Origin: an uncultured Desulfatiglans sp.
GTDB lineage: Bacteria > Desulfobacterota > DSM-4660 > Desulfatiglandales > HGW-15
Direction: 5' to 3'
DNA length: 64,000 bases
NCBI GenBank assembly: GCA_964460435.1
Contig: CAYWRH010000001.1
Span: 32,543-96,542, forward strand
A program made the translations under genes and the position numbers. The notes beneath the pieces were generated by a model. It was not told where the DNA came from and did no database searches. It saw only the letters and a program-made list of their open reading frames with translations. Below, one piece after another: positions 20,703-54,476 of the stretch (its first letter is position 1; each line of letters begins with the position of its first letter).

Positions 20703-21635
20703 ATGGGTGAAAGAGACGGGGATATTTCTATAAGTATCCAAAAGGTCAGACATATTTATAAAGGAGGAAACGCTGCCATCAACGGGATAAGCATGGATAT
20801 CCATACCGGGCTTTTCGGTCTGCTGGGCCCCAACGGTGCAGGAAAAAGCACGCTCATGCGCATTATATGCAGTCTGCTTGTACCCACAGAGGGGCGTGTT
20901 ATTGTGGGGGGATTTGATGTGGTAAAGGAGCGCAGGCATTTAAGGAGGCTTCTGGGGTATCTTCCGCAGGATTTCAATGCATGGCGTCTCCACAGGGTGG
21001 AAGAGGTGCTTGGAACACTCGCTACCCTTTCAGGCCTTGAGAATAACACGGAAAGAAAAGAGAGGGTATTTGAAATCCTTGAACTTGTAGGATTAAAGGA
21101 TGTCTCCCACAGAAAGGTAAAAAGCCTATCCGGCGGTATGGTAAGAAGGCTCGGCGTGGCCCAGTCCCTTATACATAATCCTAAGATACTGATTGTTGAT
21201 GAACCCACAGTCGGGCTTGACCCTGAGGAGCGTATACATTTCAGGCAGCTCATGGCGAAACTCGGCAAAGAGAGGATCATTATCCTTTCCACCCACATTG
21301 TAGGTGACCTTGGGAGCGGGTGTCATGACCTCGCCCTTATTGACCGGGGCAGGCTGGAGTTCAGGGGGAGCCCTGAAAAACTGATAGAAAAGGCAAAGGG
21401 GTTTGTATTTGAGATGCATCTTGAAGGCACAAGGAGTGAAGTCGCTGAACAGTATGAGATCGTATCCCAGGAACAGAGACTGGGGCGAACCATCATCAGG
21501 GCAGTATCCAGGATGGGCGAGATCCCTGATGGCGCAGTCCAGGTTGATAACCCCACACTTGAGGAGGCATATCTCGCCTTTATGGCCTCAAACAGCGTGA
21601 AACAGGCGGTAAAGGGAGGGGAGGCGCAGTCATGA
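20703..21635 (+). CDS. ABC transporter ATP-binding protein (ABC-2 subfamily type)
   Basis: Walker A GPNGAGKST, Q-loop YLPQD, signature LSGGMVRR, Walker B ILIVDEPTVGLD, H-loop STHIV. ATGA overlap with the next gene. Confidence 0.9.
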   Translation: MGERDGDISISIQKVRHIYKGGNAAINGISMDIHTGLFGLLGPNGAGKSTLMRIICSLLVPTEGRVIVGGFDVVKERRHLRRLLGYLPQDFNAWRLHRVEEVLGTLATLSGLENNTERKERVFEILELVGLKDVSHRKVKSLSGGMVRRLGVAQSLIHNPKILIVDEPTVGLDPEERIHFRQLMAKLGKERIIILSTHIVGDLGSGCHDLALIDRGRLEFRGSPEKLIEKAKGFVFEMHLEGTRSEVAEQYEIVSQEQRLGRTIIRAVSRMGEIPDGAVQVDNPTLEEAYLAFMASNSVKQAVKGGEAQS

Positions 21636-24600
21636 TGAACATAAAATCAATTCTGTCCATAGTGCGGGCTGAAACACTTGTAATAAGACGTCTGGCCAGA
21701 TACTGGCTGTTTCTCTCATTTTCATACCTGTTTGTGTTAATTGCATTTATCTATTACTCTGCCCTGCACGGCCTTTATTCATCGCATTCCGCATCAGTGG
21801 GGTTAATAAGCCCCAGGTTTCTTGTGAGTTCAATAGCAGGCGTGTTCTACCTCGCTATCTACTCTATAGGCGTGATCTTTCTTGCATTTGATGTGAGGGC
21901 AAGGGATCTGAGGGAAAGGATGCATGAGGTGCTTGATTCGCGTCCTTACACCAACATGGAGCTTGTTATCGGCAGATTTTTGGGTGTCCTGATACCCGCA
22001 TGGGTGCCCATGCTTCTCCTGATAGTGCTGATACAGCTATTGGGATTTCTGCTAAAGACCAGCGGTGTGCCTATTGGTGAGCCTGCCCAGATGAGATCCC
22101 TCCTTTCATTTGTGTTTCTGATAGGGCTACCCTCTTTCGCATTTATAATCTCGATTGTCTTTCTTGTAACCCTTCTTGTAAGGAACAGGCTGGTTTCCTC
22201 TATCATACTTGTGCTGTTGATAGCTGCAAGCTATGCAGGGATGTATTTTTTACCTAACTACAAGGCGATGGTTTTTGATTTTCTTGGGTTAATGCAGTCA
22301 GGATATCCATCAGACATTACAGCATCATTAATGCCTCTTACGGGCCTCATACACCGCGCAGCAATACTCCTTGCCTCCCTTGGAATGCTTGGCATATGTG
22401 CGGCAGTGCACCCCCGCCTTGATGATGGATCACGCTGGAAAACAGGTTTTACAGGCGCAATAATCGTAGCAGTAGCAGCGGTTATAATAGGTGGCATATT
22501 TGCAGGCAACCTGAATGATATAAAAGAGCAGGAGAGATGGCTTAGGGCACAAATGGAATACCCAAATGGCCCTGCGCCTGATATTACAAAAATCACAGGC
22601 AGGGTGCTAATAACACCAGGAAAGGATCTTAACCTTGAAATAAAGATTACATTCAAGGCCCCTGAAGAGGGTGAGATAAAAAATGCCCTGTTTACCCTTA
22701 ATCCTGGACAGAGGATAGTGGAACTCCTTGACAGTTCTGGTAAACCATTAAGCTATAAGCATGAAGAGGGCATACTTGATATTACCCTGCCCAATGCCCT
22801 GTCGCCGGGTGAGGAGGCTGTAATAGGTCTCAAAACAAAGGGCATACCGAATAAACACTTTGCATATCTTAAAAGCTCTATAAACCCCCTTAAGCTTGAG
22901 AGAAAAAATTCAAATACTATCCTTCTTGGTAATGAAAACTATCTGTTTGACAGTAATTTTGTTGCCCTTATGCCTGCAATCCGGTGGCTGCCAATGTCAG
23001 GTGTGGAGAACAGCATGGAAAAACAGCAGAACAACCGCGTGGATTTTTTCAATGTTGATCTTACTGTTGGCGTGCCAAAGGGGTGGCTTGTCGCAGGGCC
23101 TGGAAGGCGCAACAGGGCAGGTGAGGATAATAGATTTGACCTTTACCGGTTTGCTCCCCCCTCTGTTGTGCCGGAGGTGGCCCTTCTCGCATCTGAGTAT
23201 GAGAGCCGTTCATATGAAACTGAAGGCATACTCATGGAGCTTCTTGTCCACAAAAAACATATGAAAAACCTTGATGTGCTGGCTGACACAAAAGAGAAGA
23301 TCAGGGAATATATTGACACAAGGATAAAGGATGCAAAGGAGGCAGGGCTAACCTACCCCTATGACGGCCTTACCCTTGTGGAGGCGCCGACTGTTTTACG
23401 GACATATGGCGGCGGGTGGCGTCTTGATACGGTTCAGTCAATGCCCGGCATTATGCTCCTAAAGGAGCTCTCTTTGCCCACGGCCAGGTTTGACTCCGCA
23501 TTCAGGAACCCTGACAGCTTTAAAAATAGGGAGGGTGGCATAGTCAAGGCCAAGTGGGACAGGCTTCAAACCTATTTCAAACAGGATTTTTCAGGGGGAA
23601 ATATATTTACAGGCACAGCAAGGAACTTCTTCCTGTTCCAGACATCTGCAGAGGGGCCAGAAGGCATGCCTGTCAATTTTGTAATGGATACCCTGTCATC
23701 TCTTGTGCTGGCAGACACAAAGGGGTATTTTTCAGCCCATATATTTGCAGAGGGGAATTCAGTAAATGAGATCATTCAGAATGTGCTTGTAAGCTATTTC
23801 CAGCTCAGAAACGCAGGGATACAGGACACCATCCTGAACTCTACAATACGCACAAGGACATCTCGCCCTGCAGTGTGGGAAAAGGCGCTTGAGGCATCAC
23901 TAAAGGACACAGACCCCTGGAAAGATCCATCTGATACGGTAGATTACCTTATATTAAAGGGTTATGCAGTTGCAGACTCCATATATAAGACCCTTGGAAG
24001 GGAAAAGACAGCCGCATTTCTTGCATCCGTAAGAAGGAATCATACAGGAGGCCAGTTTACGGTTTCAGACATGAAAAGCGCCTTAAAAGGGCAGGGTTAT
24101 GACATGGATGCATCCCTTGGCGACTGGCTGGGCAGCACAGGGCTTCCGGGTTTTGTTGTGCAGGATGCAAAGGGATACCGTGTAGCAGATGATGAAAACG
24201 GAAGCCCCAGGTATCAGCTCCTTTTTACAGTAAGAAATGATGAGCCTGTTCCGGGGGCCTTTAACTTTGCCTATTATTATACAGCGCAGGATCAGAACCC
24301 TGAGTTGATATCAGGTGAGACTATTAACCTCGCAGGGAGGCATGCTATCCAGTACGGCACAATAGTATCAAGGCTTCCTTCCATGTATTTTCTTGCCCCT
24401 GTGCTCTCCTATAACAGAGGCACCTTTGAATTTAAGATGGAAAATATTAATTCTGACAAGATAGTCGATGCGGAGATTATTGAAGGGGTCAGAGATATCC
24501 CCTGGGCGCTCCCGGCTCCCTCATCAATAGTGGTGGATGACCTGGACGAGGGGTTCACTATTGTTAATGAAAAAGAGGAAGGTAAAGGGCTCAGGGTTAA

Positions 24601-25072
24601 GGCGAAGGGAAAAAGCAGGGACACGAAACTGGATCAGGGCTTGCCCTATACCTCCAGTAATGTATTGCCCGGAGGATTCGGCCTGCCAGCAGAATGGACA
24701 CGCATAAGCAATGGCATGAGCTATGGAAAATATAGGCATACAGCCGCTTTTATCAAGAAGGGCGAGGGGGCAAAAAAGGCTCTTTTCAGCGCTGAGTTGC
24801 CACAGGCAGGCGCATGGGACATGGAGATTTTTATACCCATGAAGAATATCTTTCCTAACAGGAAATGGGGTACATGGCATGGTGTTGTGACAGATAAAAA
24901 TGGAGATAAACATCAGGTTGAGTTTGATTCAAAGGCAGGAGGCGAAGGGTGGAACCTGGCAGGTAAATATGATTTGCCACAGGGTAAATGCACCCTGGAA
25001 CTCTCTGATCTGACCGATGGGGATATGGTGGTGGCAGATGCCATACGATGGACACCTTCTGCCGGAAAATGA
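21632..25072 (+). CDS. Large membrane protein: ABC-2-type permease-like N-terminal TM domain (~300 aa) fused to an ~850-aa extracytoplasmic domain
   Basis: 1146 aa. The N-terminus has six or more hydrophobic helices and an ABC-2-like DVRARDLRERMHEVLDSRPY segment. The remainder is hydrophilic with no HExxH. The extreme C-terminus (...LSDLTDGDMVVADAIRW) is reminiscent of golvesin-type beta-sandwich domains, but this recall is weak. Confidence 0.6.
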   Translation: MMNIKSILSIVRAETLVIRRLARYWLFLSFSYLFVLIAFIYYSALHGLYSSHSASVGLISPRFLVSSIAGVFYLAIYSIGVIFLAFDVRARDLRERMHEVLDSRPYTNMELVIGRFLGVLIPAWVPMLLLIVLIQLLGFLLKTSGVPIGEPAQMRSLLSFVFLIGLPSFAFIISIVFLVTLLVRNRLVSSIILVLLIAASYAGMYFLPNYKAMVFDFLGLMQSGYPSDITASLMPLTGLIHRAAILLASLGMLGICAAVHPRLDDGSRWKTGFTGAIIVAVAAVIIGGIFAGNLNDIKEQERWLRAQMEYPNGPAPDITKITGRVLITPGKDLNLEIKITFKAPEEGEIKNALFTLNPGQRIVELLDSSGKPLSYKHEEGILDITLPNALSPGEEAVIGLKTKGIPNKHFAYLKSSINPLKLERKNSNTILLGNENYLFDSNFVALMPAIRWLPMSGVENSMEKQQNNRVDFFNVDLTVGVPKGWLVAGPGRRNRAGEDNRFDLYRFAPPSVVPEVALLASEYESRSYETEGILMELLVHKKHMKNLDVLADTKEKIREYIDTRIKDAKEAGLTYPYDGLTLVEAPTVLRTYGGGWRLDTVQSMPGIMLLKELSLPTARFDSAFRNPDSFKNREGGIVKAKWDRLQTYFKQDFSGGNIFTGTARNFFLFQTSAEGPEGMPVNFVMDTLSSLVLADTKGYFSAHIFAEGNSVNEIIQNVLVSYFQLRNAGIQDTILNSTIRTRTSRPAVWEKALEASLKDTDPWKDPSDTVDYLILKGYAVADSIYKTLGREKTAAFLASVRRNHTGGQFTVSDMKSALKGQGYDMDASLGDWLGSTGLPGFVVQDAKGYRVADDENGSPRYQLLFTVRNDEPVPGAFNFAYYYTAQDQNPELISGETINLAGRHAIQYGTIVSRLPSMYFLAPVLSYNRGTFEFKMENINSDKIVDAEIIEGVRDIPWALPAPSSIVVDDLDEGFTIVNEKEEGKGLRVKAKGKSRDTKLDQGLPYTSSNVLPGGFGLPAEWTRISNGMSYGKYRHTAAFIKKGEGAKKALFSAELPQAGAWDMEIFIPMKNIFPNRKWGTWHGVVTDKNGDKHQVEFDSKAGGEGWNLAGKYDLPQGKCTLELSDLTDGDMVVADAIRWTPSAGK

Positions 25073-25085
25073 AAAAGGAGCTTAA

Positions 25086-26186
25086 ATGAAAGAGAATTGT
25101 AGATTCAGGATACTGGTAATTGTTTGCATCGCCCTTTCAGGTTTTCTTTCAGGGTGTTCACGTGAGGAGAGCAGTGATGACAAGATAGAATTTCTTGTGC
25201 CTGTAACCGTTACAAAGGTGGGCAAAATGGATGTTGAAGAGAGGATAACAGCCACAGGCACCCTTAGAACCAGCAAGGTTGCAAGGCTTGAGGTGGAGAC
25301 TGGCGGTATCCTTGAATTCCTGACAAACAGGGATGGTAAACGGTATCGCGAAGGAGACAGCGTAAAGGCAGGCGATGTGATTGCCCGTATCACTGGTGAT
25401 GATGTGCGCCTTGCAGCCAGAAAGGATGCAACCCTCCAGAGGTATGAGACAGCAAAGGATGAATATGAATCAACAAAAAAACTCTATGATGACGGGTTTA
25501 AAAGCAAGTCCGAGCTGCTCAAGATGCAGTCAAGCCTGGAGGATGCAAGGGTAGATTATGAAAAGAGCCTGAATTCGGAAAAACGCAGCAAGCTCACCAC
25601 GCCAATAGATGGCATTATCCTGAGGCTTGCAAGGGACAGGGATAACCAGAACCAGCCACTTGCAGTCGGTCAGTATGTGAGCCCGGGCTTTGAGGTGGCC
25701 CGCATTGCCCCCACAGATACCCTTATTGCAGATGTAGACCTTGTTGCCCAGGACGTGGCAAGGGTATCTGAGGGTCTTGCTGCAAGGGTTAAGCATTATG
25801 CATGGAAGGATGAAGAGTTTGAAGGCAAGGTGACAAGGCTTGATCCTGTTATAGACCCTGTCACAAGGGCTCTCAAGGCAGAGGTAGAGGTTATTAATCA
25901 TGAGGGTAAACTCAGGCCAGGCATGTTTGTAGAGGTAACCATTATAAAGGAGCAGAGAAAGAATGTCCCGTGTATCCCCCGTGAGGCTGTAGTTAACAAA
26001 GGGGGAAAGTGGGTAGTATTTGTCTTAAACGGACAGAGGGTTAATAAAAAAGAGGTGGTATTAGGGCTGGGTGATGACAATATTGTGGAAATCCGGTCAG
26101 GGCTCTCAGAGGGGGAAAGGGTTGTCACTAGGGGGCTCGAAACACTTGATGATCAGGTACGCGTCCGCGTGACAGGAACCAATTAA
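25086..26186 (+). CDS. Efflux RND periplasmic adaptor (MFP) lipoprotein
   Basis: Lipobox LSGC. Lipoyl halves (KAGDVIARI / LTTPIDGII), a coiled-coil hairpin, and beta-barrel and membrane-proximal domains typical of the AcrA/HlyD_D23 family. Confidence 0.85.
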   Translation: MKENCRFRILVIVCIALSGFLSGCSREESSDDKIEFLVPVTVTKVGKMDVEERITATGTLRTSKVARLEVETGGILEFLTNRDGKRYREGDSVKAGDVIARITGDDVRLAARKDATLQRYETAKDEYESTKKLYDDGFKSKSELLKMQSSLEDARVDYEKSLNSEKRSKLTTPIDGIILRLARDRDNQNQPLAVGQYVSPGFEVARIAPTDTLIADVDLVAQDVARVSEGLAARVKHYAWKDEEFEGKVTRLDPVIDPVTRALKAEVEVINHEGKLRPGMFVEVTIIKEQRKNVPCIPREAVVNKGGKWVVFVLNGQRVNKKEVVLGLGDDNIVEIRSGLSEGERVVTRGLETLDDQVRVRVTGTN

Positions 26187-26190
26187 TATC

Positions 26191-29100
26191 ATGTTAGCGC
26201 TAGCACGACTTGCAACAAGACGTCCCGTGGCCGTGACAGTGGTGGCAGCAGCCATTATCATGCTCGGGTGGATCTCCCTTAAGGGGCTCCCCATTGACCT
26301 TTTGCCTGATATTAAGAGCCCTACCATACTTGTCTCGGTAAAATCCGGTGACAGGCCACCCACAGAGATGGAGAGGCTCTATGGCAAACAGGTGGAACAG
26401 AGGCTCTTTACAGTTAAAGGAATAAGGTCAATTAACCAGGTAGCCAGGGCCGGAAACCTTATAGCAAGGGTCACCTTTGAGTGGGATGCGGACATGGATA
26501 TGGCCCTTGTGGATATCCAGAAGGCGATTGCATCCATATCAGCGGATGAGGATGTGGATGAGGTGGTGGTAAGGAGGCAGGACCCGCGCGAGCTTCCGGT
26601 TATCTCTATAGGCCTTGTTGCAAAAGAGGCGCTCCCCGGCCTTACAGAACTCAAGAAGATTGCCGAAAGGATGATCGCCCCAGCATTTGAACAGCTTGAG
26701 GGTGTGGCAGAGGTGAGGGTAACAGGCGGTCGCGAGGATGAAATAAGAATTATTGCTGACCGCTACCTTATGGAGGCCCATTCCATAACAATGGCCGAGC
26801 TTGAAAACCGTATAAGGGCGGCCAACATCGACATAAGCGCAGGCACCCTTGAGGAGGGTGATAATGTATATCTGGTAAGGGGGATATCCAGATTTAATAA
26901 TAGTGAAGATATTGCCCGTGTTGTGGTGAAGTATGACCGTGATTCAAGTGAAAAATCCATACCTGTCAGGGTTGGCGATATTGCGAAGGTCATAGTCACT
27001 GACAAGAAGATCAGCGACCTTGTGCTTGTGAATGGCAAAGAGGGTGTAAGCCTCTCCATATACAAGGAGGCAGGGGCAAATACAGTAAAGGTATCCCGTG
27101 ATGTTAAGAAGGCACTGACAGAACTTAATAAAGAATTAAAGAATATGGAGTTCAGCGTGGTAAGTGATGAGGCCGCCCTGGTGGAAGATGCAATAAGTGA
27201 TGTGGAGACCTCTGCTGTAATTGGCATTATCCTGGCGGTTATTGTGCTCTGGTATTTCTTAAGGTCATTAAGCTCAACTGTTATAGTGGCATCTGCCATA
27301 CCGGTATCTCTTATGGCAACCCTTTTTGCCATGCATTATGCAGGGCAGAGCCTTAACCTTATGACCCTTGGCGGTATGGCCCTGGGCGCAGGCATGCTTG
27401 TGGATAATGCCATTGTAGTAATAGAGAGTATCTTCCGCAGAAAGGAGGCAGGGGATTCACCGGAAGAAGCTGCTGCAAATGGCACAGCGGTTGTTGCAGG
27501 GGCGATTATCTCCAGCACCCTTACCACAATCGTGGTGTTTCTGCCTGTGCTCTTTATCAGGGGGCTTGCAGCAAGGCTTGTGTCAGGCATCTCATTTACT
27601 GTCATAGTCTCACTTGTTGCCTCTCTAGGTGTGGCGGTGTTTCTGATACCGGCCCTGGCAAAATGGTTTCTGCCAAAGGATACCATTAAGGAGGTAAACC
27701 CTGGAAAGACAAAGATAGAGGCCATTGTTACAGGTCTCCTCAAACATCCATATCTGGTGGTTGCAGTATCCTTTATAATTGTGGCCGTATCCGTATTCTC
27801 TCTTATGGGGCTTAAGAGCGAGCTTATGGCCCCTAATGACCCGAGGCAGTTTTCCCTCCGCATCACCGGTGTTCCGGGGCAGAGGGTGGAGGCTACAAAG
27901 AATATGGTAGCCGTGATAGAGGATATAATAAGGCAGGCCGCAGGTGATGACCTCAAGGCGATCCTCTCTGAGGTAGGCAGACTCCCGGAAGATGACCATT
28001 TTATACGTGAAGAGCTTACAGGTGAAAACAGGGCCAGGATACTTGTAAACCTTTCAACAGATGGGAAAACAGCGGGTCAGGTAGTAAAGGCTGCCTCTCC
28101 AGTGATTTCCGGGCTTAAAAATATCGAGGTCTCATGGGAGCTTGGCACATCAGCCATAGCAAGGGCCATTGGCAGTACCGGCCCTCCCATACAGGTGGAG
28201 ATATCCGGGCACTCTGCCACAGACCTAAGAAAGGCCGCAGATGCTGTGTTATCAAAACTAACGACACTGCCTGAGCTGTGGAATGTCCGCTCTTCATTTG
28301 AAGGGGGTGCGCCCGAGCTTCATATCGTGCTGAACCGCACCCTGTGTGACGGCCTTGGCGTTGATATAGAGATGGTTTCAAGGGTGATTGAATCGGCCCT
28401 GGATGGCAAGGTTGTGACCGAGATGACAACAGGAGATGAAGAGAAAGATGTTGTTTTGAAGGTTGAACAGGGCGCTGATATAGGGCTTAAATCCATACCC
28501 TTTACCACCTCAAAAGGGGAGCGCCTTACCATAGGGGATATCGCAGATTTTGTTAATGTAGATGGGGCGCTTGAGATTTTTAGGCGTGACCAGAAAAGGG
28601 TGGCAATGGTGACTGCGAGGATCAGGGAGGGGGTGAAATACCCTTTGGCAAAGGCTGCTACAGAATCGGCGATTAACAGCATGGATCTCTCCCCCGGCCT
28701 TAGTATGAGGCTTACCGGTGAAGAGGAGGAGAGGGCCAAGACCTTTTCGGAACTCGAATGGGCAGGCATAATATCTGTTATTCTTGTCTTCATGGTTTTA
28801 GCCGGCACCTTTGAATCCTTTCTTCATCCATTCACTGTGCTCTCCTCTATACCCTTTGCCCTCATAGGCGTGGCGGCTGTCCTATCGCCGTCAGGAAGGC
28901 CTATAGGGATCATGGAGGCATTAGGCCTTATAGTGCTCACAGGCATTGCTGTAAATGATGCGATACTTATGGTGCAGACAGCAGGCCAGTTAATTAAGGA
29001 GGGTGCTGAAAGAAAAGCGGCGCTGGCAAGGGCAGCAGCCATCAGGCTCAGGCCTATCATAATGACATCTGCCACGACCATACTTGCCCTTTTTCCCCTT

Positions 29101-29253
29101 GCCCTGGGTATAGGTGAAGCGGCCCAGCTAAGGGCACCTATGGCCATAACAATAATAGGGGGCATCACTGCATCTACGCTTACCTCCCTGTTTGTAATAC
29201 CATGCCTCTATCTGATACTCGACAAACTGCGATTCAAACGGGCCAGGGTATGA
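26191..29253 (+). CDS. RND efflux permease (AcrB/AcrD/AcrF family), subunit 1
   Basis: 1020 aa with a 12-TM, two-large-loop architecture. N-terminus RRPVAVTVVAAAIIMLGWISLKGLPIDLLPD, TM4 GMLVDNAIVVIES, and a C-terminal RLRPIIMTSATTILALFPLAL motif. Confidence 0.9.
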   Translation: MLALARLATRRPVAVTVVAAAIIMLGWISLKGLPIDLLPDIKSPTILVSVKSGDRPPTEMERLYGKQVEQRLFTVKGIRSINQVARAGNLIARVTFEWDADMDMALVDIQKAIASISADEDVDEVVVRRQDPRELPVISIGLVAKEALPGLTELKKIAERMIAPAFEQLEGVAEVRVTGGREDEIRIIADRYLMEAHSITMAELENRIRAANIDISAGTLEEGDNVYLVRGISRFNNSEDIARVVVKYDRDSSEKSIPVRVGDIAKVIVTDKKISDLVLVNGKEGVSLSIYKEAGANTVKVSRDVKKALTELNKELKNMEFSVVSDEAALVEDAISDVETSAVIGIILAVIVLWYFLRSLSSTVIVASAIPVSLMATLFAMHYAGQSLNLMTLGGMALGAGMLVDNAIVVIESIFRRKEAGDSPEEAAANGTAVVAGAIISSTLTTIVVFLPVLFIRGLAARLVSGISFTVIVSLVASLGVAVFLIPALAKWFLPKDTIKEVNPGKTKIEAIVTGLLKHPYLVVAVSFIIVAVSVFSLMGLKSELMAPNDPRQFSLRITGVPGQRVEATKNMVAVIEDIIRQAAGDDLKAILSEVGRLPEDDHFIREELTGENRARILVNLSTDGKTAGQVVKAASPVISGLKNIEVSWELGTSAIARAIGSTGPPIQVEISGHSATDLRKAADAVLSKLTTLPELWNVRSSFEGGAPELHIVLNRTLCDGLGVDIEMVSRVIESALDGKVVTEMTTGDEEKDVVLKVEQGADIGLKSIPFTTSKGERLTIGDIADFVNVDGALEIFRRDQKRVAMVTARIREGVKYPLAKAATESAINSMDLSPGLSMRLTGEEEERAKTFSELEWAGIISVILVFMVLAGTFESFLHPFTVLSSIPFALIGVAAVLSPSGRPIGIMEALGLIVLTGIAVNDAILMVQTAGQLIKEGAERKAALARAAAIRLRPIIMTSATTILALFPLALGIGEAAQLRAPMAITIIGGITASTLTSLFVIPCLYLILDKLRFKRARV

Positions 29254-32200
29254 GCTGGTATAATTTTCCTGTAAAAAGGCCTGTGGCCACGGCCATGTTT
29301 TTCTGCGCCATCCTGCTTCTGGGTCTGGTCGGTTGGGAGAGGATACCTGTGGAGCTTATCCCTGATCTTGAGGGTGACTCCATCCATATTGATTTTGTAA
29401 GGCTTAACAGCGAACCAGAGGTGGTTGAGCGCGAAATACTGATCCCCTTAGAGGAGAAGGCCTCAGCGCTTGAGGGGATAAAGGAGACATTCGGAACTGT
29501 TAATGGCTCGAACGGCTCCCTTGATATTAATTTTGAACCGGGCACCGATATCAAGATCAGGCAGCTTGAGCTCCAGCGGATTGCTGCTGAGCTTAACAGG
29601 GAGCAGCCAAGGGGTTCATATATAAATGTCGGCGGCCAGGACTTTTCAATGATAAGCCGGATCGTGATGAGCATACAGGTCCTTGGCGGTGATGACACAG
29701 ACAGTTTAAGGAGTTTTGTCGAGGAGAATATTGAGTCACGCATTGCAGCAGTAAATGGTGTGGCCAATGTTTTCGTGATGGGCGGCGCACCAGAAGAGAT
29801 AACCATAAGGGTTGACCCTGATAAATGCTCTGCCCTTGGCATATCACCACAGGAGGTATCGACAACGCTTTCACGCTCTGTTCAGAGACTAAAATTCCTG
29901 GGCGGTCTTGAAGACAGCACAATACGTCAGCCGGTCATCCTGGATGGCAGGCCTAAAGGGGTATATGAGCTGGGAGAGTTAAGGATAAGCCCTGAAAGGT
30001 CTGTGCTTATACGTCATGTTGCTGAAGTGTCAAAGGGCACAGGCAGAAAAGAGAGCATATACAGGGTAAACAGCAAGCCATCAGTTGCCCTCCTGATATT
30101 CAAGGAGGAGGGGGCAAACCTTGTCAGACTGGGTGAGGAGGTCAGGAGGCGTCTTAATGAACTCAAAAAGGAGTTTAAACCATATGGCATTGATTTTTTA
30201 ACAGGGTTTGATGCAGCAAAAACAGTTGAGAAACAGATAGACAGGCTCAAGAAACTTGCAATAAGCGGATTTATCATCTCTATTGTTATACTCTTTCTTT
30301 TTATAAAAAGGCTAAGGGCAGTTACTGTTGTTGCCATTGCCGTGCCTGTGAGCCTTTTATCTTCAATGGCCTTTCTCTATACCGGCGGATACACGCTCAA
30401 TCTTGTTACGCTCATAGGGCTTGCTGTTGGAGTAGGCATGCTTGTAGATAACAGCATAGTTGTCTATGAGGCAGCACAGCGCAGGCTTGAAAGGGGTGTT
30501 GACCCGGACAGGGCAGCAGGGGATGGCGTAAGGATAACCTTTAAGGCGATCCTTGCATCTACGGTGACAAATGCCATTGTCTTTCTGCCTGTATTCTTTC
30601 TGGTAGAGGATAGTATGTTGAGGGGGGTGATGAAGCTCCTTGCCGCTGCTATACTTATTCCTTTAGGGTCATCACTTCTTGTTGCCGTAGGGCTAGTTCC
30701 TCTTTTAGCCAGAAGATTTGCAGCGCCTGCTGCCATGGATCGGTTAAGAGCCTTAAAAAGGCGCAGGGAACTATACATGGGTCTCCCTTTACCTGACAGG
30801 TGGCGTGATCTGTTTACAGGTCTTTTAAAAAATTCCATGCGGAACCCTGCAACCTGGATCATGGTTATAACAGCGGCCCTGTTTTTTACAATAATTGTAG
30901 GGCTGCCCTGGGTTATGATCGGATCAAGGAACCAGGAGTCTCAGGAGGCAGATGAGATACAGCTCGCAATTGATGTCCCTGCAGGGGATTCCCTTGAGTC
31001 AGTAAGCAGGGACTTCTATTCACTTGAACAGGAGGCTCTTAAAATAGAGGGTGTAGAAGCTGTTGAGAGCATGATACAGGAAAAGAACAGCACCCTTACC
31101 ATCCGATTTGCTGAAAAGGGGGTGCGTCCCCCTGAACTTACTGCCCCTCTTGTGAGAGAAAAGATCAAACAGGCTGCAAAAAAGTTAAGGGGATTTGATG
31201 TCACTTCACAAAACTCAGCCGGACAGGGCAGGGGCAGGCGGGGGTCTGGCGCAGCAACCCTTATGGGTCAGGGGAAATCTGAGATTATTATATCAGGTGC
31301 TGATTCAAGGAAATTGATGGACATAGCCCTTTCATTAAAGGAGCGGCTTGAATCCATCCCTGAAATCAGTGAGGTTCAGGAATCATCAAGGCCTGGTCAG
31401 GATGAGATACACATAATACCTGATCACAAGATACTGAACAGCCTGGGGCTCTTCTCGGATCAGGTGTTTATCATGCTGAGGCTGGCGCTCTCCAGGGAAG
31501 GCACACAGATGAGCGCCGGAACAATAGAGGCAGATGGTAAGGAGATCCCGATTGTTATCAGGAGCAATGAAACCGGATCAAATAACCTGACCCGGCGAAT
31601 GGAGGATCTCAGGATAAATACCTCTGCCGGTGTAATTACCCTTGGGTACATATCTGATGCCCGCAAGATGCCCCCGCCAAATGTGATAGAACACCATAAT
31701 GGAAGGCGTGAGATGAGGGTTTACTACTCATTTAAGAGAGATGCCCCATCCACAGGGCCGGCCCGTGAGGCCCTGGATAAAGAGATATTGAGCATGATAG
31801 AGTCTGTGCCCCTGCCTGAAGGTTATGTTATCAATCCTACAGAGGATGACGAGACAGCGAGCATGGCAAGGCGCATCCTTATCCCTATTGTTCTATTACT
31901 CTTTGCAGTACTGGCCATTACCTTTGAATCCCTCACCATGCCAATCCTTGTGCTGCTCGCAGCCCCCCTTACCATTATCGGGGCTGTATGGGCGCTCTGT
32001 TTTGCAGGCATGCCCCTGTTAAGCCCTATGGCCATAGCAGGCATGGTAGTTCTTATGGGGATCATGGTAAACCCCGCGATTCTGCTTGTGGACAGGATGC
32101 AGGAAAGGGTGCTTGGAAGCAGGTGGTCTGCAGGCGCTGCTGCCCTTGCAGCGGTGCGTGAACGGTCAAGGCCGGTACTGATGACAACCGCCACAACCAT

Positions 32201-34004
32201 TGCAGGTTTGTGGCCCCTTGCCATCTCTACAGGGGCAGAGAATGAGATGTGGCCCCCATTTGCTGTTGTGATAATGGGGGGGCTTGTTACATCGGGGCTC
32301 CTCATTCTTCTTGTTATCCCGATAGGGTTTGTCTTCTTAAGCAGGATAGACAGGATATTCGGAAGGCTTGGGCCATGGATAACCGTATCATGGATATGCG
32401 CCACCGCTATTGTCATGACGCCTCTCATATATTTTGAACAGATAACCACGCTTACATGGCAGGTAACAACCACTATTCTGGTTGCATCGGTATTCTTAGG
32501 TATATTTGTGCTCATCTTCCGCAAACCCGAACTGCCTCAACCCTCTGAGGGTGTTGAGGTGGAGGTAAAATATATCCACAAGATATATGGCAGGCCCGGC
32601 CCCATTGGCAAGGCCATCAGGGCAGGGGAACATTTTGCCATAAAGGTGCTTAACCGGGGCGGAAAACCCTTTTTGCCCTCTGATGTTATCCAGCCCATGA
32701 TAACAGTTATAGTGCTTCTTATGGGGGTGTCATATCTTGCATTTTCACTGAGCACCATCTTCTGGCGGATCGTCTTTTCATTTGCCGGGGCTGTCTTACT
32801 CATAAGGCTGCTCTCCCTTATACGAAAGATACGCGGCAAATGTGATGAAAAGGGGAATACCTTGCCGGGCGGGATTGAAAACATGCTCGCCACTATTATT
32901 CCATGGATTGTCCTCTGCCTTAACGGGATATTCTATTATCTGGCGCCTGTCTCTGTTGGCAAACACCCGCGTATGGCCCTGTTTCCCATGCTGCTTATTG
33001 CCCTGCTGATAATTTTTATTCAGGCAGGCAGGAAGAGCGCAAAGGATCTTGCAACAGGCAAAATAAAAGAAAAATATGATGCTGGTTTTATTTATCGTAC
33101 AAAACTCATCTGGCGAGAGATGTGTAGGTTGCTTTTTGGTCTTGATCTGCCAAGGGATGAGCATCAGGCCCTTAAGAATATTAACTTCAGGGCAGAAAGG
33201 GGCATGATAGGTATACTTGGCCCCAATGGCGCCGGTAAAACAACACTGTTAAGGGCCATAGCGGGAATACTTGATCCGACTGCCGGTGTAATTACAATGG
33301 GCGGGGTACCCCTTAAAAAGATCAGGAGATTTCTTGCCAACTGGGTAGGGTATCTGCCACAGGATTTTGGCCTGCCCAAAAACCTTACAGGCAGGGAATA
33401 CCTTGAATACTATGCCCTGTTATACAGGATAGATGAAAGGGACAAGATTATTGAGAGGGTCAACTTCCTCCTTACCGAGGTGGGGCTGGCTGAACAGGCG
33501 GACAAAAGGATCGGGGATTATTCAGGCGGCATGAGGCAGCGTGTGGCGGTTGCTCGCACCCTGTTAAGGCTTCCGCCTGTGATCATCGTGGATGAACCGA
33601 CAGTGGGGCTTGACCCAAAGGAGCGCATCAGGTTTAGAAACCTCCTCTCAAGGCTTGCTGAGACAAGGATAGTGCTCTTTTCCACCCATGTTGTTGAGGA
33701 TGTTGCTGTTGCATGTGAACGGGTGATAGTGCTTTCAAAGGGGAAGAAGGTCTTTGATGGTGAGCCAGGCCTGCTCGCATCTGTAGCTGATGGAAAGACA
33801 TGGGAGATGAGGATCAGGGAGGGTGAAGAGAATAATCTGCCGGAGAATGCCATTGTGGTGGATCAGGCGCCCGAGGCTGATGGAACATACCATGTCAGGA
33901 TACTCTGTCATGATGCCCCTGCGAAGGACGCAAAGGCTGTTGTCCCCAATCTTCAGGATGGCTACCTTGAGCTTGTGGGGACGAGAAGGAAGAGGGTAGT
34001 TTGA
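29250..34004 (+). CDS. Fusion protein: complete RND efflux permease + 6 additional TM helices + ABC ATPase domain
   Basis: I prefer ATG 29250 (ATGA overlap with the upstream stop), giving 1584 aa. Residues 1 to ~1030 are AcrB-like (KRPVATAMFFCAILLLGLVGWERIPVELIPD; MLVDNSIVVYE; RSRPVLMTTATTIAGLWPLAI). The C-terminal ~270 aa is an ABC NBD with GPNGAGKTT (~33.22 kb), YLPQDF, YSGGMRQR, IIVDEPTVGLD and STHVV. Confidence 0.85.
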   Translation: MSWYNFPVKRPVATAMFFCAILLLGLVGWERIPVELIPDLEGDSIHIDFVRLNSEPEVVEREILIPLEEKASALEGIKETFGTVNGSNGSLDINFEPGTDIKIRQLELQRIAAELNREQPRGSYINVGGQDFSMISRIVMSIQVLGGDDTDSLRSFVEENIESRIAAVNGVANVFVMGGAPEEITIRVDPDKCSALGISPQEVSTTLSRSVQRLKFLGGLEDSTIRQPVILDGRPKGVYELGELRISPERSVLIRHVAEVSKGTGRKESIYRVNSKPSVALLIFKEEGANLVRLGEEVRRRLNELKKEFKPYGIDFLTGFDAAKTVEKQIDRLKKLAISGFIISIVILFLFIKRLRAVTVVAIAVPVSLLSSMAFLYTGGYTLNLVTLIGLAVGVGMLVDNSIVVYEAAQRRLERGVDPDRAAGDGVRITFKAILASTVTNAIVFLPVFFLVEDSMLRGVMKLLAAAILIPLGSSLLVAVGLVPLLARRFAAPAAMDRLRALKRRRELYMGLPLPDRWRDLFTGLLKNSMRNPATWIMVITAALFFTIIVGLPWVMIGSRNQESQEADEIQLAIDVPAGDSLESVSRDFYSLEQEALKIEGVEAVESMIQEKNSTLTIRFAEKGVRPPELTAPLVREKIKQAAKKLRGFDVTSQNSAGQGRGRRGSGAATLMGQGKSEIIISGADSRKLMDIALSLKERLESIPEISEVQESSRPGQDEIHIIPDHKILNSLGLFSDQVFIMLRLALSREGTQMSAGTIEADGKEIPIVIRSNETGSNNLTRRMEDLRINTSAGVITLGYISDARKMPPPNVIEHHNGRREMRVYYSFKRDAPSTGPAREALDKEILSMIESVPLPEGYVINPTEDDETASMARRILIPIVLLLFAVLAITFESLTMPILVLLAAPLTIIGAVWALCFAGMPLLSPMAIAGMVVLMGIMVNPAILLVDRMQERVLGSRWSAGAAALAAVRERSRPVLMTTATTIAGLWPLAISTGAENEMWPPFAVVIMGGLVTSGLLILLVIPIGFVFLSRIDRIFGRLGPWITVSWICATAIVMTPLIYFEQITTLTWQVTTTILVASVFLGIFVLIFRKPELPQPSEGVEVEVKYIHKIYGRPGPIGKAIRAGEHFAIKVLNRGGKPFLPSDVIQPMITVIVLLMGVSYLAFSLSTIFWRIVFSFAGAVLLIRLLSLIRKIRGKCDEKGNTLPGGIENMLATIIPWIVLCLNGIFYYLAPVSVGKHPRMALFPMLLIALLIIFIQAGRKSAKDLATGKIKEKYDAGFIYRTKLIWREMCRLLFGLDLPRDEHQALKNINFRAERGMIGILGPNGAGKTTLLRAIAGILDPTAGVITMGGVPLKKIRRFLANWVGYLPQDFGLPKNLTGREYLEYYALLYRIDERDKIIERVNFLLTEVGLAEQADKRIGDYSGGMRQRVAVARTLLRLPPVIIVDEPTVGLDPKERIRFRNLLSRLAETRIVLFSTHVVEDVAVACERVIVLSKGKKVFDGEPGLLASVADGKTWEMRIREGEENNLPENAIVVDQAPEADGTYHVRILCHDAPAKDAKAVVPNLQDGYLELVGTRRKRVV

Positions 34005-34005
34005 A

Positions 34006-34162
34006 ATTCAAGATTCAAGATTGAAGATTCAAAATTCGAAATTTGGAGCTCGACTTTAAGAGCTCTAAGTTCAATGCTTATTTAAATAAAGCCGTCATTC
34101 CCGCGAAGGCGGGAATCCATTGTTATTAAAGACCAGCAGGCTCCCACCTTCACGGGAATGAC
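34006..34162. repeat. Intergenic repeat block (short tandem repeats + REP-like hairpins)
   Basis: Degenerate tandem GATTCAA(G/A) units lie at 34006-34043. Hairpin GTCATTCCCGC-gaa-GCGGGAATCC lies at 34094-34118. Its GTCATTCCCG (34094-34103) also pairs with the distal CGGGAATGAC (34153-34162). Confidence 0.55.
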
Positions 34163-34200
34163 AGGCTAAATATGTTGAATTACATATATGGATTAAAGGT

Positions 34201-34896
34201 ATGTTAGATAAACTTAAAACCTATTTGAGTATTATGATCTACTCAGGCCGCCTAATGGCAGGTAAAAGGTTCTGGATAATAATATTTCTGCCCCTTATCT
34301 GGCCTGTTTTACAGGCCCTGTTTATCTGGATCGGATGGAGTGATGCAAAATTTAACCCCGCTGATGCACATATGCTTATTTCCATTCCCCTCTCAATTGT
34401 TGCGATGGGGCTTGGGTTACGCATCATAGCAGGGGAGATAGACAGCAGGACACTTGAGATCGCCTACACAGTGCCAGGCGGGTGCCACCGGGTATGGCTC
34501 GCCAAGATAGCAACCTGTTTCTGTCTGCTCATTGCAAGCGAGGCGCTGCTTGCCCTCTTTACAATGGTATTTCTCATATCTGTTTCAATCGGGACATTCT
34601 ATGGAGCGCTCCAGGCCGCCATGTTCTGCCTTGTTATGGGTATGGGGCTTTCAGCATTTTTCAGGAGCGAGATAACAGGGGCAATGGCAACTATTCTCTT
34701 TTTTGCATTAGGGGTTATGGCAAGTTCATTCCGTATATCGCCATTTTTTAACCCCCTTGCATTGAGCCCTTCTGAAAAGGCACAGGCTGTTACCTATGCA
34801 ATACAGAACAGGATATTTTTTATAATTTTTATTGTGGCTATAACACTGCTCACCTTCCTGCGTGTGGAAAGAAGGGAAAAGATGCTGAGAGATTAA
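34201..34896 (+). CDS. ABC-2-type permease-like integral membrane protein
   Basis: 231 aa with about 6 TM helices. It contains the ABC-2-like segment GEIDSRTLEIAYTVPGGCHRVWLAKI. Confidence 0.5.
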   Translation: MLDKLKTYLSIMIYSGRLMAGKRFWIIIFLPLIWPVLQALFIWIGWSDAKFNPADAHMLISIPLSIVAMGLGLRIIAGEIDSRTLEIAYTVPGGCHRVWLAKIATCFCLLIASEALLALFTMVFLISVSIGTFYGALQAAMFCLVMGMGLSAFFRSEITGAMATILFFALGVMASSFRISPFFNPLALSPSEKAQAVTYAIQNRIFFIIFIVAITLLTFLRVERREKMLRD

Positions 34897-34935
34897 GATT
34901 TATTTAAAGTTTTTGATTTTCATTCGAAGTTCAGA

Positions 34936-35015
34936 GTTCGATGTTGGATGTTCGATGTTTGAAGATGAACGTTGAACATCGGACGTCCAACTTTGAACAT
35001 CCAATGTTTAATTTT
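34936..35015. repeat. Nested inverted repeats built from GATGTTC/GAACATC units
   Basis: GTTGGATGTTCGATGTT (34943-34959) pairs with AACATCGGACGTCCAAC (34975-34991). Outer copies GTTCGATGTTGGATG and GAACATCCAATGTT are also present. The block lies in the spacer before the OMF gene. Confidence 0.5.
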
Positions 35016-35064
35016 AAATCTGTTGATAACTTGAATCATTTTGTTCTCATGGAGGTATGTTCAA

Positions 35065-36714
35065 ATGGTGAAAAAATTGTTGTTTAAAAAATTGATAACC
35101 TTATATATTACATTTTTAATCAGCCTGTTCATGCTTGGTGGCTGCACATATGTGGATAAGGTTAAAGAGATAAATTCAACCCCTGCAATTATGGTCATCC
35201 CTGCTGAAAAGGTTCAGCAGATAGACATGATCGAGCTGAAAAAGGCCGATGATGAGGCGCCTGTGAAGCCTGAGACAGCTGAACCTGAAAAGGCAGAGTA
35301 TGCACTTTCTCTTGAGGAGTGCCGTGCCCTTATGCTTGAGAATAATCTTGATCTGAGGGTGCAGCTTATTAGCCCTGCTATTGAAAAAGAAAATGTAAAG
35401 CAGGCAGAGGCAAGCAAGTTTGAAGCCACCTTTACCGGTAACACAAGTTATTCTAAAGATAATACCCCGACAGATTCGCTTCTGGTAGGCTCCAGCAGTG
35501 AGAGGGTAAGTATCAACCTTGGTGTAGATATCCCCTTAAGCACTGGCGGAACAGTCTCCTTTGATCTGGCGGATAACCTGAATAAGACCAATTCAACATG
35601 GGCAACATTGAACCCCTCATATAATTCAGGTTTAAGCGCCTCCATCAGTCAGCCCCTTTTAAAAAATGCAGGCCGCAGGGCATTCACTCATTCTATCCGC
35701 ATTGCCCAGTATAACAGCAGCATTACCGATCTGAGGACAAAGCTTGGCGCCATGCGCATAATAGCTGATGCAGACAGGGCATACTGGAATCTTTATGCTG
35801 CAAGAAAGATGCTTGAGGTGAGAAAACAGCAGTATGACCTTGCAAAGGCCACCCTTGATGAGACAGAACGTTTTGTTGAGGTGGGCGTAAAACCCAGGAT
35901 AGAGATAATAAGGACCAAGAGAGATCTTGCTGACAAACTCACAGCAATAATAGATGCGGAAAATATGGTTAAAGAGAGGGAGAGGGATCTTAAACGAATG
36001 CTCAATAAAAAGGGGCTTGGTATGGAGACAAAGACTGTCCTGATCCCATCCTCTTTGCCTGACCCTGTGCGCTATGAATTTGACAGAGATAATATGGTGA
36101 AAAATGCCCTTGAAAACCGCATGGAACTCCTTGAACTTGAGCTTCAGCTTGAAATGGACAGCATGACTATAGAGTATAACCGCAACCAGACGCTTCCTGA
36201 CCTCTCATTTGAGTACAGGTATAATATAGATGGGCTTGGCGCTGACAGGAGCGATTCATATGATATGCTTACAGATAATGATTATCATGACCACCAGGTC
36301 GGCTTGCGTATGAATATACCTATTGGCAATAAAAGGGCCAAAAGCGAACTCAGGAAGTCCATTTATCAGCGTGCAAAGGACCTTTCCTCAAAAGAGAGTA
36401 AAGAGGCTGAGATCAAAAACGATGTCTTGAATAAGATAGATAAAGTGGAGGCAAAATGGCAGAGCATACTGGCGAGCAGGCAGAACACACTACTCTCTGA
36501 TGAACAGTACAGGGCGGAAAAACGTCAGTATGAACTGGGGCTTGTGAGCTCAAGGGATGTAATGGATGCGCAGACCAACCTTGCAGCAGCCCAGAGCGCA
36601 GAGATTACTGCCTTGACAGATTATCAGACAGCCCTTATTGATCTTGCCTATGCCACAGGCACGCTTCTTGGCGCAGCCAAGGTGGAGTGGGAGCCGGTTG
36701 TGCCTGCGGAATAG
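35065..36714 (+). CDS. TolC-family outer membrane efflux protein (lipoprotein-type OMF)
   Basis: I prefer ATG 35065 (MVKKLLFKKLITLYITFLISLFMLGGC, lipobox LGGC). The two OEP repeats show typical motifs: LSLEECRALMLENNLDLR and ADRAYWNLYAARKMLEV. Confidence 0.85.
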   Translation: MVKKLLFKKLITLYITFLISLFMLGGCTYVDKVKEINSTPAIMVIPAEKVQQIDMIELKKADDEAPVKPETAEPEKAEYALSLEECRALMLENNLDLRVQLISPAIEKENVKQAEASKFEATFTGNTSYSKDNTPTDSLLVGSSSERVSINLGVDIPLSTGGTVSFDLADNLNKTNSTWATLNPSYNSGLSASISQPLLKNAGRRAFTHSIRIAQYNSSITDLRTKLGAMRIIADADRAYWNLYAARKMLEVRKQQYDLAKATLDETERFVEVGVKPRIEIIRTKRDLADKLTAIIDAENMVKERERDLKRMLNKKGLGMETKTVLIPSSLPDPVRYEFDRDNMVKNALENRMELLELELQLEMDSMTIEYNRNQTLPDLSFEYRYNIDGLGADRSDSYDMLTDNDYHDHQVGLRMNIPIGNKRAKSELRKSIYQRAKDLSSKESKEAEIKNDVLNKIDKVEAKWQSILASRQNTLLSDEQYRAEKRQYELGLVSSRDVMDAQTNLAAAQSAEITALTDYQTALIDLAYATGTLLGAAKVEWEPVVPAE

Positions 36715-54474: not shown

Positions 54475-54476
54475 AG

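Follow-up and report, generated by a model that had tools for sequence, protein, structure and literature searches.

Gene organization of the cluster

The window analysed here, a 64,000-nucleotide (nt) stretch of DNA from an uncultured Desulfatiglans sp., carries a cluster of seven genes that brings together the parts of two classes of pump, ATP-binding cassette (ABC) transporters and pumps of the resistance-nodulation-division (RND) family. All seven open reading frames (ORFs) lie on the + strand between 20703 and 36714. They encode, in order, a free ABC ATPase, a giant ABC-2-type permease, a membrane fusion protein (MFP), an RND permease (RND-1), a second RND permease fused to an ABC nucleotide-binding domain (NBD; RND-2::NBD, hereafter the fusion), a small ABC-2-type permease and an outer membrane factor (OMF) of the TolC family (Table 1). 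A first-pass annotation, made from the letters and ORFs of the window, had described this order together with the overlaps, gaps and domains, and the description is borne out. Its statement that the first five genes are tightly coupled also holds on reading the sequence: ATGA overlaps occur at 21632 and 29250, the MFP gene begins after a gap of 13 nt and the RND-1 gene after one of 4 nt. Further downstream, 196 nt separate the fusion from the small permease and ~145-168 nt separate the small permease from the OMF.

Table 1. Features of the cluster in the window. aa, amino acids; TM, transmembrane; AF2, AlphaFold2 model.
Feature	Coordinates	Strand	Basis
Upstream intergenic region, AT-rich, 480 nt	20223-20702	+	presumed promoter and 5' leader
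Free ABC ATPase, 310 aa: NBD and ~70-aa C-terminal domain	20703-21635	+	ABC_tran, E 6.5e-31
Giant permease, 1146 aa	21632-25072	+	AF2, Golvesin_C, ABC2_membrane hits in orthologues
Giant permease, membrane part: N-terminal amphipathic helix and 7 TM helices (ABC-2 core and one extra TM)	21632-22558	+	AF2
Giant permease, periplasmic M1-aminopeptidase-like module, aa 317-830, without catalytic motifs	22580-24121	+	Foldseek against PDB
Giant permease, C-terminal beta-sandwich domains ending in Golvesin_C (aa 1004-1142)	24152-25057	+	Pfam, AF2 all-beta
MFP, periplasmic adaptor lipoprotein, 366 aa	25086-26186	+	TIGR01730 RND_mfp
RND-1 permease, 1020 aa	26191-29253	+	ACR_tran, full length
RND-2::NBD fusion, 1584 aa	29250-34004	+	ACR_tran and ABC_tran
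Fusion, RND-2 portion, aa 1-1040	29250-32369	+	ACR_tran, E 4e-149, profile positions 2-1020
Fusion, TM hairpin TM13-14 after RND TM12, aa 1041-1097	32370-32540	+	hydropathy, AF2 helices, conserved GPW...WQ
Fusion, displaced NBD strand beta-1 with A-loop Tyr, aa 1098-1114, ..VEVEVKYIHKIYG	32541-32591	+	conserved cytoplasmic loop, AF2 strand
Fusion, ~176-aa insertion inside the NBD: one cytoplasmic helix and TM15-18	32592-33119	+	hydropathy, AF2 helices
Fusion, rest of ABC NBD and C-terminal domain, aa 1291-1584	33120-34004	+	ABC_tran, E 5.6e-29
Gap of 196 nt with inverted repeat 34094-34114 / 34142-34162	34005-34200	+	specific to the window lineage
Small 6-TM ABC-2-type permease, 231 aa	34201-34896	+	sub-threshold ABC2_membrane scores, position after fusion
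TolC-family OMF lipoprotein, 549 aa from ATG 35065; ORF opens at TTG 35041	35041/35065-36714	+	OEP

The RND-ABC fusion

The longest ORF had been read as an RND permease that continues into an ABC ATPase, and this fusion is real. ACR_tran (E 4e-149) covers aa 20-1046 and ABC_tran covers aa 1324-1467 in the numbering of a 1600-aa ORF that is possible from 29202; orthologues and public gene calls begin at 29250. The corresponding 1584-aa product was used as the query for homologues, and counts were made among 120 listed clusters per clade, so they are lower bounds. Full-length fusions of ~1550-1620 aa occur in more than 230 protein clusters from many assemblies, with 47-100% identity, and form two deep clades. 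In clade 1, 119 of the 120 listed clusters are full-length (1543-1607 aa, 51-100% identity), and all 119 contain both ACR_tran and ABC_tran; the assemblies behind them are independent and stem from NCBI, JGI, ENA and Logan. Clade 2 is represented by 112 full-length fusions among its 120 listed clusters, and its identity to the window protein ranges from 26% (RND part) to 43% (NBD).

The carriers belong to at least eight named lineages, as assigned from source names and record titles. In Desulfobacterota, the fusion is found in Desulfatiglans and Desulfobacteraceae, and the window is ~85% identical to metagenome-assembled genomes (MAGs) of uncultured Desulfatiglans. Carriers among the Acidobacteriota include Thermoanaerobaculia, Holophagae, Vicinamibacterales and Polarisedimenticolaceae. 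Aminicenantes also carry it. Those among the Gammaproteobacteria are Pseudomonadales, Ca. Multivorans and Azotimanducaceae. Zixibacteria, Gemmatimonadota, Calditrichaeota and one Planctomycetia MAG complete the list. The names met in public annotations are 'efflux RND transporter permease subunit', 'ATP-binding cassette domain-containing protein' and 'hypothetical protein'.

Between RND TM12 and the recognisable NBD of the fusion lie ~250 residues with six TM helices predicted from hydropathy. A loop between the first two of these helices (the TM hairpin) and the last four (the 4-TM insertion) carries the conserved motif 'lEVr.LhKvYGrPGP', in which Y1113 is invariant. This loop looks like strand beta-1 of an NBD with its A-loop aromatic residue (compare 'ISIQKVRHIYKG' of the free ATPase). 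An AF2 model of fusion residues 1001-1584 (pLDDT 81.7) places a beta-strand at 1104-1113 and TM15-18 at 1143-1166, 1170-1194, 1208-1235 and 1244-1269, and in such a model the strand would pair with the NBD sheet. Since two and then four extra TM helices precede them, beta-1 and the rest of the NBD both stay in the cytoplasm.

The displacement of beta-1 is also visible to profile models. On the native fused NBD, NCBIfam alignments begin no earlier than model position 14. When the loop is spliced onto the NBD, the GldA alignment starts at position 3 rather than 14 and its score rises from 172.7 to 180.9 bits; gains with the PQQ-ABC and NodI models are ~4 bits each, and a shuffled control segment gives no gain in score. 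A beta-1-like motif stands a median of 220 aa before Walker A in 116 of the 119 clade-1 fusions listed and a median of 207 aa before it in 102 of the 112 from clade 2, as compared with 32 aa in the free ATPase. Sequence and model support the split NBD as a probable family-wide hallmark of the fusion. An NBD broken by four TM helices between beta-1 with its A-loop and the remainder represents a novel ABC architecture.

The six extra TM helices were also considered as a cryptic ABC-2 transmembrane domain (TMD), a candidate that was rejected. Their hhalign probability against the small permease and the giant-permease TMD is below 1%, Pfam returns nothing for them, and Foldseek matches only the NBD part, for which the best structures are TM_1403 (4yer) and NosF (7osf_B). 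A phmmer search with the linker against 1.84 billion representative proteins returned 38 clusters, all of the fusion family. Full-length matches place the linker at residues ~1040-1320, and the shorter matches look like fragments. Stand-alone linker-NBD proteins were likewise discarded as a class, the one case checked (P0247, 539 aa) being a fusion split by a frameshift.

The two ATPases

The free ATPase and the fused NBD had been called clear paralogues with related C-terminal domains, in agreement with an hhalign E-value of 1e-77 that includes those domains and with 33-41% identity between the two within the same genome. The nearest NCBIfam models of the free ATPase are DrrA and GldA, both below cut-off. 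Walker A, the Q-loop, the SGGM signature, Walker B with the catalytic Glu and the H-loop are kept in 69 orthologues of the free ATPase, and all five are likewise kept in 46 orthologues of the fused NBD; Walker A reads GPNGAGK[ST]T in both families. At the level of these motifs, each NBD is predicted to be catalytically competent. A degenerate ATP site, sought as a signature of a heterodimer, is found in neither family (69 and 46 sequences). The motifs that the first-pass annotation listed as shared are indeed common to both NBDs; the 'IYxG' of the fused NBD sits ~190 aa upstream, beyond four TM helices.

Conservation of the gene cluster

Gene order was read from both ends of the cluster. On the giant-permease side, one genome per species was scanned (80 loci), with annotation by BLASTP against the window proteins. 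Loci with at least 9.7 kb downstream of the giant permease were regarded as evaluable, which applies to 48 of 82 non-redundant loci. The order ATPase, giant permease, MFP, RND-1, fusion and small permease is complete in 42 of these 48, and the flanks are unrelated. The six exceptions comprise three truncation effects (L027, L042, L080) and three real departures (L038, L040, L083). Shorter contigs with cluster genes show the same order as far as each reaches, and four of them (L023, L058, L068, L071) hold an orphan giant permease only. On the fusion side, the whole cluster is present in 9 of 10 loci examined, again among unrelated neighbours. The small permease follows the fusion gene in every locus examined, and each complete locus has one MFP and two RND paralogues. 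All seven components recur in clade 2, at 26-43% identity. The synteny check had been set beforehand as a test that could refute a single machine, and it found the order conserved from both sides and in both clades.

The position of the OMF gene is more variable. It follows the small permease in Desulfobacterota-type loci, and in the four clade-2 loci (L092, L172, L173, L174) it is always flanked by the giant permease and MFP genes. In the three Acidobacteria-type loci with downstream DNA read, the cluster is not followed by an OMF, an amendment to the seven-gene unit proposed at first. All components diverge from their window orthologues in a rank-correlated manner (rho 0.71-0.91, 30 loci). 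Inheritance as a single block would fit this pattern, though shared phylogeny alone would give much of this signal.

One 8-kb locus (L090, Logan contig SRR26713616_47491) contains only the fusion and the small permease. An unrelated gene on the opposite strand lies 460 nt upstream, and no RND-1, MFP or giant permease is found ahead of the fusion gene there. In three Thermoanaerobaculales, Holophagae and Thermoanaerobaculia MAGs (L027, L033, L034), ~1.5-2 kb of extra DNA separate MFP and RND-1, genes that are a few bases apart in other loci. In some MAGs, the cluster is present twice, whole or in part (L016 and L018 in 'Bacteroides sp. SM23_62'; L040 and L078; L020 and L023). MAGs labelled Bacteroides sp. 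SM23_62 and SM23_62_1 carry clade-1 copies with a giant permease 58-60% identical to that of the window. A scan of metagenomes with the fusion C-terminus, based on Walker A and Q-loop patterns, returned mostly generic ABC ATPases and was informative only for L092 and L093.

The giant permease

The AF2 model of the giant permease, built on a 42-sequence alignment (pLDDT 86, pTM 0.84), has TM helices at 22-49, 61-94, 108-143, 154-182, 186-206, 236-259 and 268-309. With seven TM helices, the M1-like domain and the C-terminus lie outside, in the periplasm. The TMD of the window protein has no ABC2_membrane Pfam hit; its orthologues have recorded ABC2_membrane_2/3/5 hits and bear JGI names of the COG1277/NosY type. 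Downstream of TM2, an ABC-2 motif of the giant permease aligns with that of the small permease.

An external domain of ~850 aa on this ABC-2 permease was part of the first-pass annotation. The fusion of the two exists and the periplasmic module measures 840 aa; its description is amended here to an M1-like pseudoenzyme followed by a domain that resembles a carbohydrate-binding module (CBM). The best Foldseek match of the M1-like module (~510 residues) is IRAP (5mj6, E 3e-18), and ERAP1/2, APN, the tricorn factor F3 and the lanthipeptide peptidase EryP follow at E 1e-16 to 3e-18. These alignments span ~650 columns at 10-13% identity. Membership of the M1 family at the sequence level was rejected, as a PDB profile search gave none and Pfam shows no Peptidase_M1 hit even at E 10. 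The HExxH and GxMEN motifs are absent in 42 of 42 giant-permease homologues. Because it has neither a sequence relationship to the family nor these motifs, the module is read as a pseudo-peptidase, or at least as no zinc enzyme of the M1 type. At the C-terminus, Golvesin_C is matched above cut-off (E 1.9e-10), a domain that corresponds to CBM6-CBM35-CBM36_like_2, a carbohydrate-binding-like domain (PMC9166713).

An M1-like fold beside a CBM-like domain invites speculation about a peptide- or glycan-containing ligand, or about anchoring to the cell wall. An ABC-2 permease that bears a catalytically stripped M1-like cavity and a CBM-like domain points to a new substrate class, possibly of such peptide- or glycan-containing molecules.

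Further copies of the giant permease have been found. The four full-length orphans (L023, L058, L068, L071) sit among unrelated housekeeping genes with no ATPase beside them, and in three of these cases (L023, L068, L071) the same MAG also has a complete cluster. Two loci (L049 and L063) encode two giant permeases in tandem inside the cluster. Such extra copies suggest exchangeable or heteromeric periplasmic modules. A protein of ~1100 aa with PD40, Tricorn_N and amidohydrolase domains, ~40% identical between loci, adjoins the cluster in a Zixibacteria genome (L172:15564-18887 (-)) and orphan giant permeases in two proteobacterial MAGs (L068:5698-8943 (-), L071:1080-4388 (-)). Genes for S9, M28 or trypsin-like peptidases occur near other loci. 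These peptidase neighbours, which are too sparse to judge, may reflect a functional link to peptide processing.

The RND pair, adaptor, outer membrane factor and small permease

RND-1 matches ACR_tran over profile positions 2-1020 of 1021 (E 6e-203). MdtB is the best PDB match of both RND-1 (E 3e-88) and RND-2, and the two proteins are 28% identical over their full length. In AcrB, the proton relay comprises Asp407 and Asp408 of TM4, Lys940 of TM10 and Arg971 of TM11. RND-1 has 'VDN' in TM4 and 'VND' in TM10, invariant in 58 orthologues, and RND-2 has 'DN' in TM4 and 'NP' in TM10, invariant in 51. Both keep the TM4 Asp and the TM11 Arg. In both, Asn replaces D408 and K940 of AcrB, and they differ from each other in having Asp (RND-1) or Pro (RND-2) in TM10.

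A second efflux operon of the classical three-gene form lies in the window at 52954-58771 (-) and consists of a 406-aa ORF, a 1025-aa RND and a 506-aa ORF. The outer ORFs are presumably an MFP and an OMF, as judged from position and size. The RND of this operon (54477-57554 (-)) is 34% identical to RND-1 and has 'VDG' in TM4 and 'VNN' in TM10. The idea that RND-2 has lost its proton relay and is driven by ATP as a result was dropped, since this stand-alone RND has 'NN' in TM10 and the clade-2 proteins differ again. The TM10 pattern is not diagnostic of activity, because a classical RND of the same window also has no TM10 charge and clade-2 members differ again.

The MFP scores 184 bits with RND_mfp (cut-off 94.9) and also matches HlyD_D23. 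Its lipobox reads LSGC and that of the OMF LGGC in the sequence. The OMF is recognised by OEP (E 1.2e-47), with weak matches to NCBIfam models of the TolC family. The small permease of the window matches ABC2_membrane_4 (E 8e-5) and ABC2_membrane_2 (E 2e-3), both below cut-off, and two of its orthologues have recorded ABC2_membrane_2 hits, one of them weak.

Flanking and intergenic regions

The observation that no regulator gene is adjacent to the cluster holds. Upstream, on the opposite strand, are genes for SurA-like peptidyl-prolyl isomerases, and downstream are a gene of the arylamine N-acetyltransferase family and a radical SAM gene. The region upstream of the ATPase (20223-20702) has no ORF of 100 aa or longer and shows only weak sigma-70-like matches. 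An Rfam search of this 480-nt leader and of the gaps found no riboswitch or known RNA family.

The small-permease gene is bracketed by two imperfect inverted repeats, which take up the unusually long gaps at 34005-34200 and 34897-35064. The first (34094-34162) has arms of 21 nt that are 90% complementary and separated by 27 nt, and its core 20-mer (34097-34116) occurs once in the window. The second (34921-35006), on the other side of the gene, has 39-nt arms that are 77% complementary. No credible Rfam match was found for either. The gap between fusion and small permease is 3-92 nt in the closest relatives, and the two genes overlap in Acidobacteria and Gammaproteobacteria loci. Because the closest relatives have far shorter gaps, the two repeats look like lineage-specific insertions. 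They are possibly small mobile elements, elements similar to repetitive extragenic palindromes (REP) or mRNA-processing signals.

A candidate composite export system

The first-pass annotation took the region for one envelope machine rather than adjacent pumps, a view that gains support from the conserved synteny, the full-length fusion and the two deep clades. Conservation of both synteny and fusion excludes chance adjacency or two independent pumps, as far as comparative genomics can, and the covalent link makes physical association certain for the RND-NBD pair. Translational coupling is evident in the ATGA overlaps and in the many genomes where the fusion and small-permease genes overlap. 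The region probably encodes one composite envelope-spanning export system, driven by ATP and by the proton motive force (PMF) and operating as a two-step relay. Within this package, our confidence is higher that the genes form one functional unit and lower for the relay itself. We infer a common substrate path for the ATP- and PMF-driven steps and a single MFP shared by the two module types, and further that the parts assemble physically beyond the fused pair with a stoichiometry and a direction of hand-over as outlined below, and, from the folds, that the substrate is possibly peptide- or glycan-containing.

In the proposed mechanism, RND-1 and RND-2 would combine, like MdtB and MdtC, into a heteromeric RND pump that would dock on the single MFP lipoprotein and through it on the TolC-type OMF. 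The membrane-anchored fused NBD would pair with the neighbouring small 6-TM ABC-2 permease, and the free ATPase, its sister paralogue, with the giant ABC-2 permease, whose seventh TM helix would set the inactive M1-like cavity and the CBM-like domain in the periplasm. Driven by ATP, the ABC-2 modules would either act on the substrate at the inner membrane, by capturing or flipping it, or set the periplasmic binding domain in motion. The substrate would then be handed to the PMF-driven RND porter and expelled through MFP and OMF. Inner-membrane pumps are known to cooperate in two steps with tripartite RND pumps, and the system would be a hard-wired form of such cooperation. The pairing of ATPase with giant permease and of fusion with small permease is suggested by the gene overlaps, by a locus with only the first pair (L040) and by one with only the second (L090). 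The predicted topology is coherent in that the extra TM helices of the fusion keep beta-1 and the NBD cytoplasmic and the seven TM helices of the giant permease place the M1-like domain outside.

Several observations weigh against a single relay machine. Flanking genes give no consistent clue to a substrate, and no OMF gene follows the cluster in the three Acidobacteria-type loci where downstream DNA was read. Parts can be encoded apart, as in the orphan giant permeases (L023, L058, L068, L071) and in L090 with its fusion and small permease only. The ABC modules could be mechanotransducers rather than translocators, with NosF among the closest structures to the NBD. Finally, the two NBDs may work as one heterodimer or as two homodimers.

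One alternative, tentative in our view, concerns that last point. Free ATPase and fused NBD, together with giant and small permease, would make up a single heterodimeric ABC transporter tethered to one RND-2 protomer. This is a question of stoichiometry (e.g., RND-1:RND-2 of 2:1) and is compatible with either a relay or a mechanism in which the ABC modules load the pump. The two NBDs are close paralogues with the unusual shared motifs GYLPQ[DE]FG, SGGM and VDEPTVGLDP.ER, and no complete locus lacks either NBD or either permease. MdtB2C is an RND trimer of two MdtB and one MdtC; by analogy, the one NBD carried by each RND-2 would suit a trimer that contains RND-2 once. However, neither ATP site is degenerate, which deprives a heterodimer of its asymmetry signature, a point that can also be graded as neutral. 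Tandem (L049, L063) and orphan giant permeases, the locus with ATPase and giant permease only (L040) and that with fusion and small permease only (L090) suggest separable units, and gene overlaps couple ATPase with giant permease and fusion with small permease. The evidence from gene arrangement mildly favours two separable ABC-2 units over one heterodimer.

The main rival mechanism, which we regard as rather unlikely, is that the ABC-2 modules transport nothing across the inner membrane. ATP hydrolysis would instead move the giant M1-like/CBM-like domain, and perhaps RND-2, as in the mechanotransducing ABC systems NosDFY, MacB, LolCDE and FtsEX. The periplasmic domain might then capture a ligand from the periplasm or the outer leaflet and load it into the conduit of RND, MFP and OMF, or gate the pump. 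The giant permease is of the COG1277/NosY kind according to JGI names, the fused NBD has NosF (7osf_B) among its best structural matches, and the 840-aa periplasmic module combines a ligand-enclosing M1 fold that has no catalytic residues with a CBM-like domain. RND pumps usually draw their substrates from the periplasm or outer leaflet, as AcrB does. Yet the small permease has no periplasmic domain to move and still has its own fused NBD, and the data do not separate this mechanism from true translocation.

More doubtful is the notion that RND-2 is the first RND protomer to be directly driven or gated by ATP, with the split, membrane-embedded NBD passing ATP-dependent movements via the extra TM helices to the TM bundle of the RND protein. 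If true, it would describe a dual-energised tripartite pump, with ATP acting on RND-2 and PMF on RND-1, and a new coupling principle instead of a pair of cooperating transporters. That two or three independent, uncoupled transporters share the region and that the long ORF is an incidental or artefactual fusion is highly improbable: each module type exists alone elsewhere and the window itself has a classical MFP-RND-OMF operon at 52954-58771, but more than 230 clusters, drawn from many assemblies and sources, contain the fusion at full length, the apparent 'stand-alone' linker-NBD proteins look like fragments (the one checked is a frameshift split), and the gene content is conserved over two deep clades and many phyla with unrelated flanks.

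RND pumps, driven by PMF, and ABC pumps, driven by ATP, are textbook alternatives whose cooperation is normally loose and indirect. Here, modules of the two kinds are welded together, and the combination persists across at least eight named bacterial lineages. A literature search found no description of an RND-ABC fusion or of a fusion of an ABC permease with an M1-like domain; its coverage of subscription journals was incomplete, and a prior description is possible. The hybrid RND-ABC architecture is apparently widespread and undescribed, and in kind it belongs with the tripartite envelope pumps. Its lack of description may be explained by the fact that nearly all carriers are uncultured environmental bacteria. 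If the parts share one substrate path, the system would amount to a two-step pump hard-wired by nature, reaching from the cytoplasm or inner membrane to the exterior, and would make testable how inner-membrane transporters feed tripartite pumps, and whether ATP helps or gates an RND protomer.

Comparison with known systems

The arrangement of the RND genes is shared with MdtABC-TolC of E. coli and MuxABC-OpmB of P. aeruginosa, in which one MFP gene is likewise followed by two paralogous 12-TM RND genes, with an OMF as partner. In contrast to these pumps, RND-2 here adds six TM helices and an ABC NBD, and the unit includes two ABC-2 permeases and a second ATPase. The two RNDs score 362 and 260 bits with the MdtC model (cut-off 1774) and 333 and 228 bits with the MdtB model (cut-off 1584), far below the equivalog cut-offs that orthology would call for. 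Relative to AcrB, TM10 has Asn in place of Lys940.

MacAB-TolC is similar in that genes for an ATP-driven ABC transporter and a periplasmic adaptor occur together and a TolC-type duct provides the exit. In the YbhGFSR and RbbA-YhhJ-YhiI systems of E. coli, ABC-2 permeases occur together with an MFP gene. Unlike the cluster, none of these three has an RND subunit. MacB is a 4-TM FtsX-type permease fused to an NBD, a type that the cluster does not encode: no FtsX or MacB_PCD Pfam hit is found in it, and its permease topologies are 7 TM and 6 TM. We know of no member of the MacAB and ABC-2-MFP systems with an NBD that is fused to, or interrupted by, foreign TM helices.

NosDFY(L), which acts in the maturation of nitrous oxide reductase (PDB 7osf), likewise couples an ABC-2 module to a large periplasmic domain, and NosF is among the structures closest to the fused NBD. 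The periplasmic partner in the cluster is an M1-like/CBM-like domain fused to the permease rather than NosD, and RND, MFP and OMF are present. No nos genes or NosD occur in any locus examined from the fusion side. The three-domain fold of the M1 zinc aminopeptidases (IRAP, ERAP1/2, APN, F3 and EryP) matches that of the giant permease at ~317-830. Unlike these enzymes, the module is tethered to the membrane by an ABC-2 domain and has a CBM-like domain behind it, and the HExxH-x18-E site and GxMEN are absent.

A more distant analogy is offered by ArsAB and by SecYEG-SecA with the RND-superfamily protein SecDF, in which a PMF-driven or secondary-type component and an ATPase serve one substrate path. 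There is no homology of organisation between these systems and the cluster; to our knowledge, a fusion of ATPase and PMF component is found in none of them, nor do they include ABC-2 permeases, an MFP or an OMF. Because the MdtB and MdtC cut-offs are missed and FtsX-type permeases, nos genes and M1 motifs are lacking, the cluster is not a member of the families compared here. It probably works like a combination of these known systems.

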